A DNA stretch of 64,000 bases from Squalus acanthias (GCA_030390025.1 CM059431.1:95916001-95980000); one strand, 5' to 3'. Numbered from the stretch's first letter, positions 10,993-19,380 are shown. Notes: generated by a model from the letters alone, not told the origin. A program made the numbers and translations.

Positions 10993-11761
10993 GATTATTA
11001 TCTGAATGGCAATATATTGGGAGAAGGGGAAGTGCAACGAGACCTGGGTGTCCTTGTGCACCAGTCGCTGAAGGTAAGCATGCAGGTGCAGCAGGCGGTT
11101 AAGAAGGCAAATGGTATGTTGGCCTTCATAGCGAGAGGGTTTGAGTACAGGAACAAGGATGTCTTGCTGCAGTTGTACAGGGCCTTGGTGAGACCACACC
11201 TTGAGTACTGTGTGCAGTTTTGGTCGCCTTATCTGAGGAAGGATGTTCTTGCCATGGAAGGAGTTCAGCGAAGATACACAAGGCTGATACCTGGGATGGC
11301 AGGAATGACGTATGAAGAAAGATTGGGTCGATTGGGCTTATACTCGCTGGAGTTTAGACGAATGAGAGGGGATCTCATTGAAACTTATAAAATTCTGACA
11401 GGACAGGACAAACTAGATGCAGGAAGGATGTTCCCGATGGTCGGGGAGTCCAGAACCAGGGGTCACAGTCTAAGGATAAGGGGTAAGCCATTTAGGACGG
11501 AAATGAGGAGGAATTTCTTCACCCAGAGAGTGGTGAACCTGTGGAATTCTCTGCCACAGAAGGCAGTAGAGGCCAATTCATTAAATAGATTCAAGAAGGA
11601 GTTGGATAGATTTCTTAAGGCTAAAGGGATCAAGGGATATGGGGAGAAAGCAGGGACAGGGTACTGAATTTGGATGATCAGCCATGATCGCATTGAATCC
11701 CGGAGCAGGCTAGAGGGGCCGAATGGCCTACTCCTGCTCCTATCTTCTAAGATTCTATGAT
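10993..11761 (+). mobile_element. 5'-truncated CR1, copy 2 of a duplicated pair
   Basis: ORF 11017-11667 differs from 7871-8521 at only two amino acids; both junctions are the same. Confidence 0.95.
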
Positions 11762-13008: not shown

Positions 13009-13521
13009 TGTAGGGAATAGGTGGGTCAGTGGCAGCTTGGATAAGGAATTGGCTTAAGGACAGAAAACAGCGAGTTGTGGTAAATGGCTGTTTTTCAGAC
13101 TGGAGCATGGTAGACAGTGGTGTTCCCCAAAGGTCAGTGCTGGAGCCACTGCTTTTTTTGATATATATAAATGACCTGGATATTGGAATACAGTGTATAA
13201 TTTTAAATTTGCCAATGACACCAAACTTGGGGGTGTGGCAAACAGTGATGATGATACCAATCGACTGCAACAGGATTTAGAAAGACTAGCAGAATGGGCA
13301 GACAAGTGGATGATGGAATTTAATACAGAGAAGTGTGAGGTGATGCATTTTGGCAGAAGGAACAGGGAGAGGCAATGTACATTTAATGGCACAGTTTTAA
13401 AGAGTGTGCAGGGACAGAGTTACCTGGGAGTTAATGTGCATTGGTCCCTAAAGGTGGTGAGACATATTGAGAGATTGGTTAGCAAAGCATATGGGATCTT
13501 GGGCTTCATAAATAGAGGCCA
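13009..13521 (+). mobile_element. CR1 family A, left part (continues at 17549)
   Basis: WIRNWLKDRKQRVVVNG..SGVPQ..YINDLD..GFINRG; same family as the copies at 28253 and 31061. Confidence 0.9.
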
Positions 13522-13575
13522 TGATGCGGAGATGCCGGTGTTGGACTGGGGTGGACAAAAGTGAGAAGTCGCACA
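13522..13575 (-). mobile_element. Penelope-type short element, left part (split by CR1 family B)
   Basis: GATGCGGAGATGCCGGTGTTGGACTGGGGTGGACAAAAGTGAGAAGTCGCAC is not CR1 sequence and reads on into AACACCAGGTTATAGTCC at 17472. Confidence 0.7.
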
Positions 13576-13576
13576 G

Positions 13577-14437
13577 TGCGGGAAGTGTGTCCAGCTGCAG
13601 CTCATGTGGGACCGCATGACGGCCCTTGAGCTGCGGATGGACTCACTTTGGAGCATCCACGATTCTGAGAGGGTTGTGAATAGCACATTTAGTGAGTTGG
13701 TCACACCGCAGGTTAAGGCCAGAGTAGATAGTACATGGGTGACCAAAAGGCAGAGCAAGGGCAGGAAGGTAGTGCAGGAATCCCCTGGGGTTGTCTCCCT
13801 CAGCAACAGGTTCACCGCCTTAGGTGCTGTTGTCGGGGGGGATGACTCATCGGGGGAAGGCACCAGCAGCCAGGCTCATGGCACCATGACTGGCTCTGTT
13901 GCAAAGAAGGGAGGGAAAAAGAGTGGCAGGGCTATAGTAATAGGGGATTCGATTGTAAGGGGATTAGATAGGAGTTTCTGTGGTCGCGACCGAGACTCCA
14001 GGATGGTAATTTGCCTCCCTGGTGCAAGGGTCAAGGATGTCTCGGCACGGGTGCAGAACATTCTGGAGGGGGAGGGGGAACAGCCAGTTGTCGTGATACA
14101 TGTTGGTACCAACGACGTAGCTAAAAAAAGGGAAGAGGTCCTACAAGTAGAATTTAGGGAGTTAGGAGCCAAGCTAAAAAGTAGGACCTCGAAGGTAGTA
14201 ATCTCTGGATTACTACCAGTGCCACGTGCTAGTAAGAGTACAGAGAACAGGATAGTTAGGCTAAATACGTGGCTTGAGCAGTGGTGTAAGAGGGAGGGTT
14301 TTAAATTTTTGAGGCATTGGGACCAGTTTTGTGGTAGGTGTGACCTATACAAAAGGGACGGTCTACACCTGTGCAAAGATGGAACTGATGTTCTCGGGGT
14401 AAATTTTGATAAAGCAGTTCGGGAGCATTTAAACTAG
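13577..14437 (+). CDS. CR1 ORF1 (partial): CxxC remnant, coiled coil, SGNH/GDSL esterase-like domain
   Basis: CGKC; VIGDSIVRG, LPGARV, HVGTND and DGLHL blocks; ends HLN-TAG. Confidence 0.9.
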   Translation, partial: CGKCVQLQLMWDRMTALELRMDSLWSIHDSERVVNSTFSELVTPQVKARVDSTWVTKRQSKGRKVVQESPGVVSLSNRFTALGAVVGGDDSSGEGTSSQAHGTMTGSVAKKGGKKSGRAIVIGDSIVRGLDRSFCGRDRDSRMVICLPGARVKDVSARVQNILEGEGEQPVVVIHVGTNDVAKKREEVLQVEFRELGAKLKSRTSKVVISGLLPVPRASKSTENRIVRLNTWLEQWCKREGFKFLRHWDQFCGRCDLYKRDGLHLCKDGTDVLGVNFDKAVREHLN

Positions 14438-17379
14438 TATGGCAGGGGGCTAGAAACCCATGTAGTGAAATAGAGGAAAGTGAAAGGCAGACAGAAATAA
14501 ATGGTAAAAAGGAGAGGAACAAAAAACAAAGGGCCAAACTAATTCATAAAAAATGTGAGCATAAAAAAAGCCTGAGGGTTTTATACCTTAATGCGAGAAG
14601 CATCAGGAACAAGGTAGATGAATTAGCTGTGGAAATAGAGGTTAATAATTATGATCTAATTGGGATTACGGAAACATGGTTGCAGGGTGAGCAGGGCTGG
14701 GAGCTTAACATACAGGGGTATTCAGTATTTAGGAAGGATCGACAAAAAAGAAAGGGAGGAGGGGTAGCATTGCTGGTAAAAGAGGGGATAAATGCAATTG
14801 AAAGGAAGGATATTAACTCAGTTAATACAGAATCTATATGGGTGGAGCTAAGAAATAGCGAGGGGCGAAAAACATTAATAGGAGTGGTATATAGGCCTCC
14901 AAATAGTAAAATAGAGGTTGGGGAGGGCATCACGAGGGAAATTAGAGAAGCGTGCAATAAGAGCACAGCTGTCATCATAGGTGACTTTAACTTACATATA
15001 GATTGGACTAGCCTAATCAGTAAAAATAATGAGGAGGAGGAATTCCTTGAGTGTTTAAGGGATGGTTATCTGGATCAATATGTCGAGGAACCAACTCGGG
15101 AACAGGCTATATTGGACTGGGTACTGTGCAATGAGAAGGGACTAATTAGTAATCTTGTTGTACGGGGACCCTTGGGTCAGAGCGATCATAACATGATCGA
15201 TTTCTCACTCGAAATGGAGAGCGAAGAAATTGACTCAGAGACTCAGGTCCTGAATTTAAACAAGGGGAATTATGATGCCATTAGACGGGAACTGAGTAGG
15301 TCTGATTGGACAACGTTCCTGGGAGGACTGGAGGTAGATAAACAATGGCAAGCATTTAAAGATAGAATGACAAAATTGCAAAAATTGTTTATACCAATCT
15401 GGCATAAAAGGAAATCTAAAAAGGTGACTCAACCGTGGATAACAGGGGAAATTAGAGACAGCATAAAATCCAAAGATAGGGCGTATAAAATAGCCAAAAA
15501 ACGCGCCAGAGCGGAAGATTGGGAACAGTTTAAGATAGAGCAAAGGAGGGCAAAGGGCTTAATCAAGAAGGGCAAAATAGCTTACGAAAGCAAGCTGGCG
15601 GAAAATATAAAAACTAACTCCAAAAGCTTTTATAAGTATATCAGGAGGAAAAGACTGGTGAAAACCAAAGTTGGTCCATTGCAGTCAGATACGGGGGAAT
15701 ATATAATGGGAAATAAGGAAATGGCAGACCAACTAAATGCATACTTTGGGTCAGTCTTTACGAAGGAAGACACAAAAAACCTCCCTGGGATATCGGGAAA
15801 AATAGGGACATTGGCAAAGGAGGAACTGACGCAAATCAATATCTCTAAGGATATGGTGTTAAGGAAGCTAAAGGGATTGAAGGCGGACAAATCCCCAGGG
15901 CCTGATAACATGCATCCTAGGGTACTGAAGGAGGTGGCCCTAGAGATAGCGGATGCACTAAGCATGATTTTTCAGAATTCATTAGACTCGGGAACAGTGC
16001 CCATGGATTGGAGGGTAGCTAACGTTACCCCACTATTCAAAAAGGGGGGTAGGGAAAAAGCAGGTAATTACAGACCTGTAAGCCTTACATCAGTTGTGGG
16101 CAAAATGCTGGAGTCCATCATTAAGGATGAAATAGCCGAGCACTTAGCAAATGGGGACAGGATAGGACAGAGTCAACATGGATTTACAAAGGGTAAATCG
16201 TGCTTGACTAATCTATTGGAATTTTTTGAGGGAGTAACTGGTAAAATAGATGGGGGAGAGCCAGTAGATGTGGTGTACCTGGACTTCCAAAAGGCCTTCG
16301 ATAAGGTCCCACATAAAAGATTAGCATGGAAAATTGAAGCTCATGGGATAAAGGGGAAAGTATTGACGTGGATAGAGAACTGGCTGTCAGATAGAAAACA
16401 GAGAGTTGGAATAAACGGCTCATTTTCTGAATGGCAGGCAGTAACAAGTGGGGTACCACAGGGATCTGTCCTGGGTCCCCAGCTGTTCACAATTTATATT
16501 AATGACCTGGATCAGGGAGTCGAATGCAGCATTTCCAAATTTGCAGACGACACTAAACTAGGAGGGGGGGTGGGCTCAGAGGAGGAGACCAGGAAGCTCC
16601 AGAGCGATTTGGACAGACTGGGTGATTGGGCGGATAAATGGCAGATGCACTATAATGTGGACAAGTGCGAAGTTATCCACCTTGGGTGCAGGAACGGGAG
16701 GGCAAATTATTATTTAAATGGCAATAAATTGGGAGAGGGGGAAGTACAGAGAGACCTGGGTGTTCTTGTACACCAGTCACTGAAGGCGAGCATGCAGGTG
16801 CAACAGGCGGTCAAGAAGGCAAACGGTATGCTGGCCTTCATAGCAAAAGGGTTGGAATACAGGAACAGGGATACCTTGCTGCAGCTGTACAGGGCACTGG
16901 TGAGACCACACCTCGAGTACTGTGTACAGTTTTGGTCGCCTCATCTGAGGAAAGATGTTCTTGCCATGGAGGGGGTGCAGCGGCGATTCACCAGGCTGAT
17001 ACCAGGAATGGCGGGATTGACCTATGAGGAGAGACTATGTAGTTTAGGGATGTACACACTGGAGTTTAGAAGATTGAGAGGGGACCTCATAGAAGTGTAT
17101 AAAATTCTGACAGGTCTAGACAGATTAGATGCAGAAGGAATGTTTCCCTTGGCGGGTGAGAACAGAACTAGAGGACATAATTTAAGGATAAGGGCTAAAC
17201 CATTTAGGACAGAAATGAGGGGGAATTTCTTCACTCAGAGAGTGGTGAACCTGTGGAACTCATTGCCACAGAGGGCAGTGTACGCCAGCTCATTAAATAT
17301 ATTTAAGAGGGAATTAGATATATTTCTACAGGCAAAAGGGGTTAAGGGTTACGGAGAGAAGGCGGGGACGGGATACTGA
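14428..17379 (+). CDS. CR1 ORF2, APE endonuclease plus reverse transcriptase, stop-free (983 codons from 14428)
   Basis: LYLNARS, GITETW, GDFN, SDH (APE); KSPGPD, YRPVSL, LDFQKAFDKV, GVPQGSVLGP, FADD (RT); frame opens after TAA at 14410-14412. Confidence 0.95.
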   Translation, partial: FKLVWQGARNPCSEIEESERQTEINGKKERNKKQRAKLIHKKCEHKKSLRVLYLNARSIRNKVDELAVEIEVNNYDLIGITETWLQGEQGWELNIQGYSVFRKDRQKRKGGGVALLVKEGINAIERKDINSVNTESIWVELRNSEGRKTLIGVVYRPPNSKIEVGEGITREIREACNKSTAVIIGDFNLHIDWTSLISKNNEEEEFLECLRDGYLDQYVEEPTREQAILDWVLCNEKGLISNLVVRGPLGQSDHNMIDFSLEMESEEIDSETQVLNLNKGNYDAIRRELSRSDWTTFLGGLEVDKQWQAFKDRMTKLQKLFIPIWHKRKSKKVTQPWITGEIRDSIKSKDRAYKIAKKRARAEDWEQFKIEQRRAKGLIKKGKIAYESKLAENIKTNSKSFYKYIRRKRLVKTKVGPLQSDTGEYIMGNKEMADQLNAYFGSVFTKEDTKNLPGISGKIGTLAKEELTQINISKDMVLRKLKGLKADKSPGPDNMHPRVLKEVALEIADALSMIFQNSLDSGTVPMDWRVANVTPLFKKGGREKAGNYRPVSLTSVVGKMLESIIKDEIAEHLANGDRIGQSQHGFTKGKSCLTNLLEFFEGVTGKIDGGEPVDVVYLDFQKAFDKVPHKRLAWKIEAHGIKGKVLTWIENWLSDRKQRVGINGSFSEWQAVTSGVPQGSVLGPQLFTIYINDLDQGVECSISKFADDTKLGGGVGSEEETRKLQSDLDRLGDWADKWQMHYNVDKCEVIHLGCRNGRANYYLNGNKLGEGEVQRDLGVLVHQSLKASMQVQQAVKKANGMLAFIAKGLEYRNRDTLLQLYRALVRPHLEYCVQFWSPHLRKDVLAMEGVQRRFTRLIPGMAGLTYEERLCSLGMYTLEFRRLRGDLIEVYKILTGLDRLDAEGMFPLAGENRTRGHNLRIRAKPFRTEMRGNFFTQRVVNLWNSLPQRAVYASSLNIFKRELDIFLQAKGVKGYGEKAGTGY

Positions 17380-17471
17380 ATTGAAGGATCAGCCATGATC
17401 TCATTAAATGGCGGAGCAGGCTCGAAGGGCCGGATGGCCTACTCCTGCTCCTATCTTCTATGTATCTATGT

Positions 17472-17548
17472 AACACCAGGTTATAGTCCAACAGCTTTAT
17501 TTGAAATCACAAACTTTCGGAGCGCTGCTCCTTCGTCAGGTGAAGTCA
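17472..17548 (-). mobile_element. Penelope-type short element, right part
   Basis: Non-CR1 sequence between two CR1 pieces; contains a hammerhead core on the minus strand. Confidence 0.7.
17507..17543 (-). ncRNA. Minimal hammerhead ribozyme-like motif, possibly degenerate
   Basis: Minus strand TCAC-CTGACGA-A-GGAGC.AGC.GCTCC-GAAA-GT-TT-GTGA. Confidence 0.65.
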
Positions 17549-17918
17549 GCTGATGGGTTTGGATAGGCTGGGCGGGGAAAGACTGTTCCCACTAGTTGAT
17601 GGTACAAGGACTAGGGGACACAGATTTAAGGATTTGGGCAAGAGATACAGGGGGGATGTAAGGAATATCTTTTTTACGCAGCGAGTGGTGAGGACCTGGA
17701 ACTCACTGCTAACGGAAGTGGTGGAAGCGGAGACACTCAATGATTTCAAGGGGAGACTGGATAGGCATTAGAGGGAAATAAACTTGCAGGACTACGGGGA
17801 TAGAGCAGGGGAATGGGACTGACTGGATTACTCTACCGAGAGCCGACACGGAGTGAATGTGCCAAATGGCCTCCTTCTGTGCTGTTATGACCCGATGACT
17901 CTATGTTATGACTCTATG
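17549..17918 (+). mobile_element. CR1 family A, right part (3' end)
   Basis: MGLDRL..RTRGHRFK..FFTQRVVRTWNSL; GACTCTATG tail. Confidence 0.9.
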
Positions 17919-19380
17919 TGCTTTCTATTAGTGGGATGTGTTGGTGCAATATATTAGTGGGATGTGTTGGTGCTATATATTAGTGGGATGTGTTGGTGCT
18001 ATATATTAGTGGGATGTGTTGGTGCTATATATTAGTGGGATGTGTTGGTGCTATATATTAGTGAGATGTGTTGGTGCTATATATTAGTGGGATGTGTTGG
18101 TGCTATATATTAGTGGGATGTGTTGGTGCTATATATTAGTGAGATGTGTTGGTGCTATATATTAGTGGGATGTGTTGGTGCAATATATTAGTGAGATGTG
18201 TTGGTGCTATATATTAGTGAGATATGTTGGTGCTATATATTAGTGAGATGTGTTGGTGCTATATATTAGTGGGATGTGTTGGTGCAATATATTAGTGAGA
18301 TGTGTGGGTGCTATATATTAGTGAAATTTGCTGGTGCTATATATTAGTGAGATGTGTTGCCGCTATATATTAGTGGGATGTGTTGATGCTATATATTATT
18401 GGGATGTGTTGCCACTGTATATTAGTGAGATGTGTTGCTGCTATATATTAGTGAGAGTTGTTGGTGCTATATATTAGTGGGATGTGTTGCTGCTATATAT
18501 TAGTGAGATATGTTGGTCCTATATATTAGTGGGATGTGTTGCCGCTATATATTAGTGGGATGTGTTGATGCTATATATTAGTGGGATGTGTTGCCACTAT
18601 ATATTAGTGAGATGTGTTGCTGCTATATATTAGTGAGATTTGCTGGTGCTATATATTAGTGAGATGTGTTGGTGCTATATATTAGTGAGATGTGTTCGTG
18701 CTATATATTAATGAGATGTGTTCGTGCTATATATTAGTGAGATGTGTTAGTGCTATATATTAGTGAGATGTGTTGGTTCTATATATTTGTGAGATGTTTT
18801 TGTGCTATATATTAGTGGGATGTGTTAGTGCTATATATTAGTGAGATGTGTTAGTGCTATATATTAGTGAGATGTGTTGGTGCTATATATTCGTGAGATG
18901 TGTTGGTGCTATATATTAGTGAGATGTGTTAGTGCTATATATTAGTGCGATGTGTTAGTGCTATATATTAGTGAGATGTGTTGGTGCTATATATTCGTGA
19001 GATGTGTTGGTGCTATATATTCGTGAGATGTGTTAGTGCTCTATATTAGTGAGATGTGTTGGTGCTATATATTAGTGAGATGTGTTGGTGCTATATATTA
19101 GTGAGATGTGTTGGTGCTATATATTAGTGAGATGTGTTAGTGCTCTATATTAGTGAGATGTGTTGGTGCTATATATTAGTGAGATGTGTTGGTGCTATAT
19201 ATTAGTGAGATGTGTTGGTGCTATATATTAGTGAGATGTGTTAGTGCTCTATATTAGTGAGATGTGTTGGTGCTATATATTAGTGAGATGTGTTGGTGCT
19301 ATATATTAGGGAGATGTGTTGGTGCTATATATTAGTGAGATGTGTTGGTGCTATATATTAGTGGGACGTGTTAGTGCTAT
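17919..19380 (+). repeat. 26-bp satellite, block 4
   Basis: Same unit with more variants. Confidence 0.97.

Follow-up and report, generated by a model that had tools for sequence, protein, structure and literature searches.

In a 64,000-nucleotide stretch of Squalus acanthias DNA (GCA_030390025.1 CM059431.1:95916001-95980000, hereafter the window, with positions counted from its first letter), a CR1-type long interspersed nuclear element (LINE) carries the heptamer T_TTA_AAC directly before the stop codon of its first open reading frame (ORF1). We propose, with a probability of about 0.66, that this element makes its second open reading frame (ORF2) by -1 programmed ribosomal frameshifting at the heptamer, which would yield an ORF1-ORF2 fusion. 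A gag-pol-like fusion of this kind had been suggested from the window's sequence alone (the sequence-only reading), and it is the reading best supported by our in silico analysis: the TTTAAAC-stop motif and the -1 phase of ORF2, whose conservation, synonymous sites included, had been named as the test, proved to be conserved in four families and one distant lineage. The features of the element are as follows.

13565-17472, plus strand: CR1-type LINE copy, with ORF1, ORF2 and 3' end read from the sequence.
13565-14437, plus strand: ORF1, a GDSL/SGNH esterase (PF13472 Lipase_GDSL_2, E 8e-12), 5'-truncated in the window copy, with the C-terminus ...REHLN-TAG.
14413-14437, plus strand: ORF1/ORF2 overlap of 25 nucleotides (nt), from frame analysis.
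14428-14434, plus strand: slippery heptamer T_TTA_AAC in the X_XXY_YYZ phase, spanning the third position of the His codon and the final Leu and Asn codons of ORF1.
14435-14437, plus strand: ORF1 stop TAG, directly 3' of the heptamer (TAA or TAG at this place in relatives).
14441-14450, plus strand: G-rich element GGCAGGGGGC, 6 nt past the heptamer, with GGGGG at 14445-14449.
14413-17379, plus strand: stop-to-stop ORF2 frame of 988 codons, with APE endonuclease and reverse transcriptase.
14434-14589, plus strand: Met-free linker of the ORF2 frame.
About 14590-15189, plus strand: APE endonuclease of ORF2 (Exo_endo_phos, residues 60-259, PF03372/PF14529).
About 16048-16680, plus strand: reverse transcriptase of ORF2 (RVT_1, residues 546-756, PF00078).
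17380-17472, plus strand: 3' untranslated region, ending in an 8-nt tandem, TCTATGTA x2, at 17457-17472.

We assign the element to the CR1-group LINEs with an esterase ORF1 on the basis of its ORF1 type, its domain order and its 3' end, where no A-run is present and a short tandem stands instead, as in CR1. A short 3' tandem of ~8 nt replacing poly(A) is a hallmark of CR1. The mention of an octamer in the accessible part of PMC2612034 gives partial support for a CR1-type 3' end.

The junction between the two ORFs is compact. ORF1 ends with the codons CAT TTA AAC TAG, and the T|TTA|AAC split of the heptamer is the ORF1 phase. ORF2 is in the -1 frame relative to ORF1, with the TAA at 14410-14412 as its upstream boundary; because this TAA closes the -1 frame, a shift from ORF1 into ORF2 is possible only within 14413-14437. 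This overlap holds no second slippery site, the other two in-phase heptamers of ORF1 being upstream of the TAA. The earliest ATG of the ORF2 frame is found at 15193 (residue 261), just 3' of the endonuclease match. No near-cognate start was found in the ORF2 frame at 14413-14470, and no stop-AUG overlap or adjacency of the SART1 or calicivirus type was found in that frame from 14413 to 15193; the sole nearby ATG, at 14439, is in the +1 frame and opens an ORF of only 4 codons. A -1 slip at the heptamer would give the reading CUA-GUA-UGG..., translated as LVWQGAR. Frames and domain matches thus bear out what the sequence-only reading had described here, namely the phase and position of the heptamer, the -1 ORF2 with its 25-nt overlap and its first ATG after the endonuclease, the G-rich stretch 6 nt downstream and the LVWQGAR peptide after the slip.

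The CR1 family of the window is young and recently active. The 401 nt that span the junction are present at 100% identity at at least 40 genomic sites (40 scored of 734 candidates in the 3.7-Gb genome). Twelve of 30 junction-identical copies carry a full ORF1 of 315 amino acids with the N-terminus MAVELGPV, the others being 5'-truncated at various points, and in 28 of the 30 no stop interrupts the ORF2 frame within the extracted piece. Selection cannot be read from identical copies, and diverged relatives were therefore sought by searching the genome with ORF1 proteins of other species and extracting the junctions. Three further families were obtained in this way, with ORF1 roughly 52-64% identical to that of the window's family.

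Family 2: junction GGG GGT TTA AAC TAA tttgtcaggggg at 29 of 30 loci, ORF2 at -1 with an overlap of 118 nt and the first ORF2-frame ATG 491 nt downstream.
Family 3: junction GGT TTA AAC TAA cttggcagggggatggg at 5 of 12 loci in one set and 6 of 7 in another.
Family 4: junction GCT TTA AAC TAA atagtggggggaggg at 5 of 7 loci, the other two reading TTTAAAA TAA.

ORF2 was at -1 in every relative where the frame could be scored. From the heptamer to the endonuclease, the ORF2 frame was open in the representatives of families 1, 2 and 3, in two of four family 4 copies and in the metagenome loci described below, and neither the window's family nor family 2 has an AUG upstream of the endonuclease domain. 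Where family 3 copies lack the junction, they carry indels in the G-run before it, or a rearrangement. For family 4, we considered whether TTTAAAA marks a propagating and still slippery subfamily and dropped the idea: exact 24-mers genome-wide numbered 18 for the TTTAAAA form vs 1491 for the TTTAAAC form, which fits random decay with local duplications.

Two particularities of these families deserve mention in their own right. In families 2 and 3, 7-13 G directly precede TTTAAAC, in a number that varies among copies (L045, L063, L065, L068-L070, L160), and such length changes often take TTTAAAC out of the ORF1 phase, which makes the tract a hot spot of mutation, with polymerase slippage as a possible cause. 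In one family 2 copy (L167, G000:C14:54879100-54879600, near base 155), a 5-nt deletion takes away the stop together with the last bases of the heptamer and joins ORF1 and ORF2 as one open frame of 1270 codons.

We next asked how far the junction is constrained at the nucleotide level, using 12 lineage representatives aligned with the heptamer as anchor. Nine columns, TTTAAACTA, are invariant in all 12 representatives, and no other block of equal length is. Over the 60 nt upstream of the heptamer, mean pairwise identity among the same sequences is 54% (range 30-85%), and across them four different codons (CTG, TTG, CTT and CTA) encode a Leu that is conserved 22 codons ahead of the stop. In the window element, TTA accounts for 18% of Leu codons, AAC for 42% of Asn codons and NNT for 22% of all codons, so that NNT-TTA-AAC would have a probability of about 0.017 per independent lineage if amino acids alone mattered, a figure that assumes saturated neutral sites and applies to lineages that share descent. 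Since the ending is invariant despite the varied Leu codons and this codon usage, we take the terminal NNT-TTA-AAC to be held at the nucleotide level, in the slip phase. For a single copy, the case against chance is modest: in-phase X_XXY_YYZ heptamers occur at 8 of the element's 1274 codons, which gives about 5% for one in the 8-codon overlap, and TTTAAAC occurs 15 times on both strands of the window. It is the conservation across families that, on this alignment, carries signal beyond chance.

The same junction was found outside the genome. A profile search of metagenome contigs gave 80 loci (22-56% identity), among them a distant lineage with the same heptamer junction and an ORF1 that is 26-40% identical. 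In six loci (L077, L078, L081, L084, L085, L088), ORF1 ends with [GT]CT TTA AAC TAG followed by gaagggggaagggga, and ORF2 is at -1 wherever the contig extends to it; a further locus, L073, reads TCG TTA AAC TAG, with the first position of the heptamer altered. Two proteins with a C-terminus like that of this lineage (P0113, P0114) are 37-39% identical to an alligator ORF1. At the protein level, homologues of ORF1 were found in sharks, rays and alligator, and 67 of the 103 homologues surveyed have a complete C-terminus, 33 of these being elasmobranch or alligator proteins. Thirty-two of the 33 end with Leu-Asn and the remaining one with Ile-Asn; the residue preceding LN varies (G16, T4, A4, D3, S2, C1, Y1, E1) and is NNU-encodable in 31 of 32, Glu being the one that is not. 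Three further alligator-type proteins end with ALN, and cyprinid and characin homologues have other C-termini (ET, QT, KP and others). A scan of prokaryote genome contigs for vertebrate contaminant contigs gave 17 loci, all ordinary bacterial GDSL hydrolases, and a search for longer, fused proteins gave six matches, none informative on the decoding of natural elements. Altogether, a conserved stop-adjacent U_UUA_AAC signal is apparently widespread among elasmobranch and crocodilian-type CR1 elements.

The protein survey also turned up several irregular database entries. Two stingray gene models (P0028, P0104) read ...GG-FKL-(N/D)(L/V)QGAG... at the junction, as with one base added before the heptamer, for which a genomic indel copy or the annotation pipeline are candidate causes, and in a catfish model (P0107) the esterase is located behind the reverse transcriptase. 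LINE ORF1 sequence stands under unrelated protein names in P0006, P0049, P0050, P0083, P0104 and P0108, such as a 'Pseudomonas aeruginosa SGNH/GDSL hydrolase' from a contig of 4 kb and, among annotations of fish and rays, isoforms named 'transmembrane protein 204', 'ABHD14A-like', 'hydroxyacid oxidase 2' and 'PPE54'; contamination, or gene models with exons of transposon origin, is the probable explanation of these entries.

The frame of ORF2 follows the type of signal at the end of ORF1. For this comparison, we used the metagenome loci in which both the ORF1 stop and the endonuclease start could be placed. ORF2 was at -1 in all five TTAAAC-TAG loci, and in frame 0 in 22 of 26 loci whose ORF1 ends with TGA, 17 of these 22 having no further stop before the endonuclease (loci with ORF2 in frame behind a TGA include L079, L094, L097, L099, L101, L102, L106, L109, L111, L120, L123, L127, L129, L133, L134, L136, L145 and L152). 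The TGA at the in-frame junctions is often found as TGA CTA, TGA CCA or TGA CCC. In two loci (L075:1081 and L076:1315), it reads TGA CTAG, and the in-frame reading stays open, free of Met, as far as LKLGLLNIRS, with which the endonuclease begins. UGA-CUAG is a classic leaky-stop context, and the esterase-ORF1 lineages with a single TGA look like cases of programmed stop-codon readthrough. A heptamer with ORF2 at -1 in one set, and a single in-frame stop in another, thus fits recoding rather than reinitiation.

If frameshifting occurs as we propose, ribosomes translating ORF1 would arrive at the final two sense codons with UUA in the P site and AAC in the A site, and a fraction of them would slip one base backward onto UUU and AAA. 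The slipped ribosomes would continue with CUA-GUA-UGG... (LVWQGAR...) through the Met-free linker into the endonuclease and the reverse transcriptase, giving an ORF1p-ORF2p fusion of about 1,300 amino acids in full-length copies. Ribosomes that do not slip would terminate at the adjacent UAG and release free ORF1p, and the slip rate would set a high ORF1p:ORF2p ratio, like that of retroviral Gag:Gag-Pol. The G-run 7-10 nt downstream may assist the slip. That ribosomes slip at the heptamer, and at what rate, we infer from these sequence features.

Several observations weigh against this mechanism. A heptamer alone usually gives low shift rates, and no stable RNA structure was predicted by RNAfold, with or without G-quadruplex terms, in the 100 nt past the heptamer of 15 representatives (z between -1.53 and +1.15); the 133 nt taken from the window likewise lack a stable fold (-14.7 kcal/mol, z -0.19), and no Rfam match was found. 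The sequence-only reading was right to be cautious about the weak pairing that it saw there. The negative result concerns a hairpin or pseudoknot expected 5-9 nt downstream, pseudoknots and long-range or protein-mediated stimulators being types beyond these predictions. The window copy itself lacks the first ~26 codons of ORF1 and would express no ORF1 from its own start. The expectation that no AUG precedes the endonuclease stands for the window's family and family 2 and fails for family 3, which has an ATG seven codons ahead of this domain; Met codons also occur in the linker of several copies from family 4 and the metagenome, at positions that are not conserved, and AUG-dependent ORF2 starts are therefore possible in such families. 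Finally, the DNA evidence comes mostly from one genome and from metagenome contigs, the other named species contributing protein C-termini only.

Besides the heptamer block, a single conserved feature was seen. A run of at least five G starts 7-10 nt past the heptamer in all 12 representatives, usually followed by a second G-tract, and in the ORF2 frame the Gly that it encodes is spelled GGG every time. This invariable spelling suggests a nucleotide-level constraint on the G-run. Among the predicted folds no stable one includes the G-run, and only 4 of 15 representatives have a predicted two-tier G-quadruplex. We regard the G-run as a candidate stimulator, and our guesses as to its mode of action are a weak G-quadruplex, a contact with ribosomal RNA (rRNA) or a protein-binding site. 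A 5-6 bp hairpin (GGCUC/GAGCC or CCAGGC/GCCUGG) was also considered as the stimulator and set aside, being too distant from the slip site and missing from the shark families; in the metagenome lineage (L084, L085, L077, L088), this hairpin lies about 28-55 nt past the heptamer, behind the G-rich stretch.

The belief that we withhold from frameshifting goes mainly to reinitiation, in which termination at the UAG would leave some 40S or 80S on the RNA, followed by a restart, or by some other non-AUG start, in the -1 frame nearby, the junction serving as the restart signal. We consider this unlikely, even if it is the textbook view of LINE ORF2 (PMC5972666, PMC3708506 and PMC3894237, each in its accessible parts). 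The stop position is conserved as strongly as the heptamer, in family 3 an ATG stands shortly before the endonuclease domain, and the conserved G-run lies a short way past the stop, where SART1, according to the accessible part of PMC5972666, requires a downstream element; all of this would suit a restart. The junction itself suits it poorly: a stop-start overlap is absent, the ATG at 14439 being in the +1 frame with its 4-codon ORF, and no conserved AUG or near-cognate follows the stop, the codons after CUA being GUA, AUU, ACU, AAU, GGU, GCU, GAC and GAU. Reinitiation also leaves unexplained why the slip-phase NNU-UUA-AAC is kept even at its synonymous sites, and why ORF2 is at -1 with the heptamer and in frame 0 with TGA.

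Slippage of a polymerase rather than of the ribosome would have RNA polymerase II or the element's own reverse transcriptase add a base to a homopolymer, so that an ordinary ribosome would read ORF1 and ORF2 in one frame. The 7-13 G of variable length before TTTAAAC in families 2 and 3, the two stingray models that read ...GG-FKL... as with one base added, and the copy with ORF1 and ORF2 fused by a 5-nt deletion are all compatible with this. Yet the heptamer is also kept where the overlap contains no homopolymer (GAG CAT TTA AAC; AGG GCT TTA AAC), as in family 4, the metagenome lineage and the family of the window. In addition, contigs of four public runs, which drop rare variants and of which X10 and X12 barely cover the region, have no splice joint over 14100-14800 and no indel at 14413-14437; none of the variants listed for these contigs falls at 14409-14459, an observation that is not firm. 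We hold polymerase slippage to be highly improbable. We give equally little credence to chance or hitch-hiking, in which ORF1p would need a C-terminal Leu-Asn, the heptamer would be its by-product, and ORF2 would be made otherwise or ORF2p supplied in trans. LN is indeed conserved as a peptide, and the roughly 5% computed above for an in-phase heptamer in the overlap of a single copy counts in its favour. But all 12 representatives use TTA, AAC and a preceding NNT, even though only 18% of Leu codons are TTA and the upstream Leu uses four different codons; the residues before LN are free to vary except for the NNU constraint; and where the motif changes, so do the frame of ORF2 and the place of the stop. 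Frameshifting at the heptamer accordingly remains the reading that we prefer for the window's element.

A wider proposal can be made, against which we think the odds stand: recoding at the ORF1 stop may be a general and ancient route to ORF2 in esterase-ORF1 LINEs of the CR1/L2 group. Under this tentative proposal, shark, ray and alligator-type CR1 would use a -1 shift at U_UUA_AAC, and insect-like and teleost-like metagenome lineages would read through an in-frame UGA, in many cases UGA-CUA(G). ORF2p would normally be made as an ORF1p-ORF2p fusion, following a Gag-Pol logic without a protease, and the frameshift would be boosted by a novel type of stimulator in place of a hairpin or pseudoknot: a G-run without structure, some 10 nt downstream, that would act by way of a bound protein, rRNA or a G-quadruplex.

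The surroundings of the element in the window are a nested LINE pile-up. Other CR1 fragments (reverse transcriptase and C-terminal ORF2 pieces) flank it at 10993-11667, 13014-13564 and 17473-17918, and its truncated 5' end meets the reverse transcriptase fragment of another copy at 13564/13565. Directly 3' of a second CR1 3' end, a tandem repeat occupies 17918-18593 (26-bp unit GTGCTATATATTAGTGGGATGTGTTG, 26 copies, 91% match).

UUUAAAC is the -1 slippery site of coronaviruses, and in Rous sarcoma virus the gag stop codon directly adjoins the slippery site. The gag-pol sites of retroviruses and long terminal repeat (LTR) elements, coronaviruses and PEG10 likewise have an in-phase X_XXY_YYZ followed by an enzyme ORF at -1 that lacks a start, and retroviral gag-pol likewise fuses a structural protein to a polymerase at a set ratio, as we propose for the window's element. 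Unlike retroviral gag-pol, this element is a non-LTR LINE without a protease, and it has an unstructured G-run instead of a hairpin or pseudoknot predicted 5-9 nt downstream. U_UUA_AAC is described as a classical eukaryotic frameshift site in the accessible part of Atkins 2016 (PMC5009743), which also mentions frameshifting within HeT-A gag. Among LINEs, ORF2 translation of Dictyostelium TRE5-A and TRE3-A requires a -1 frameshift according to the available sections of a review (PMC5911963); these elements, which we compare by description only, are APE-type LINEs like CR1, but they belong to another LINE clade and host and have no esterase ORF1. SART1 couples stop and start through UAAUG in dependence on a downstream RNA element (PMC5972666, in part), and an unconventional termination-reinitiation is proposed for human LINE-1 ORF2 (PMC3708506, in part). 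Both resemble the window's element in having a bicistronic LINE RNA in which translation of ORF2 is coupled to where ORF1 ends; the window's element differs in that it has no overlapping AUG, a heptamer conserved at synonymous sites and an ORF2 strictly at -1.

In the full-text literature searched, we found no report of CR1 ORF2 being made by frameshifting, older CR1 and L2 papers outside that scope being ones that may describe the overlap. The words 'frameshift', 'overlap' and 'slippery' have no occurrence in a 2026 survey of the CR1 group (PMC13343379), nor has 'frameshift' in Luke 2013 (PMC3894237), and the accessible parts of Schneider 2013 (on the ORF1 esterase), Metcalfe and Casane 2014, Odon 2013 (PMC3708506), PMC3894237 and PMC5009743 contain no statement of a CR1 ORF2 frameshift. 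As far as their available text goes, PMC3894237 and PMC3708506 call ORF2 translation from bicistronic LINE RNA unclear and discuss reinitiation, internal ribosome entry sites and 2A peptides, not frameshifting.

CR1-group elements are, in the available part of PMC13343379, the dominant retrotransposons of most vertebrates, and how LINEs translate ORF2 is a long-standing open question, for which the conserved stop-adjacent U_UUA_AAC and the frame logic around it offer a concrete, testable hypothesis. A G-run that is conserved where no structure is predicted may indicate an unusual frameshift stimulator. If ORF1p-ORF2p fusions are indeed made, a fixed low dose of ORF2p would be explained, and the reverse transcriptase would be physically tied to the esterase/membrane-binding ORF1p and its RNA, with a bearing on cis-preference. 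LINE expression would then be brought close to that of retroviral Gag-Pol.

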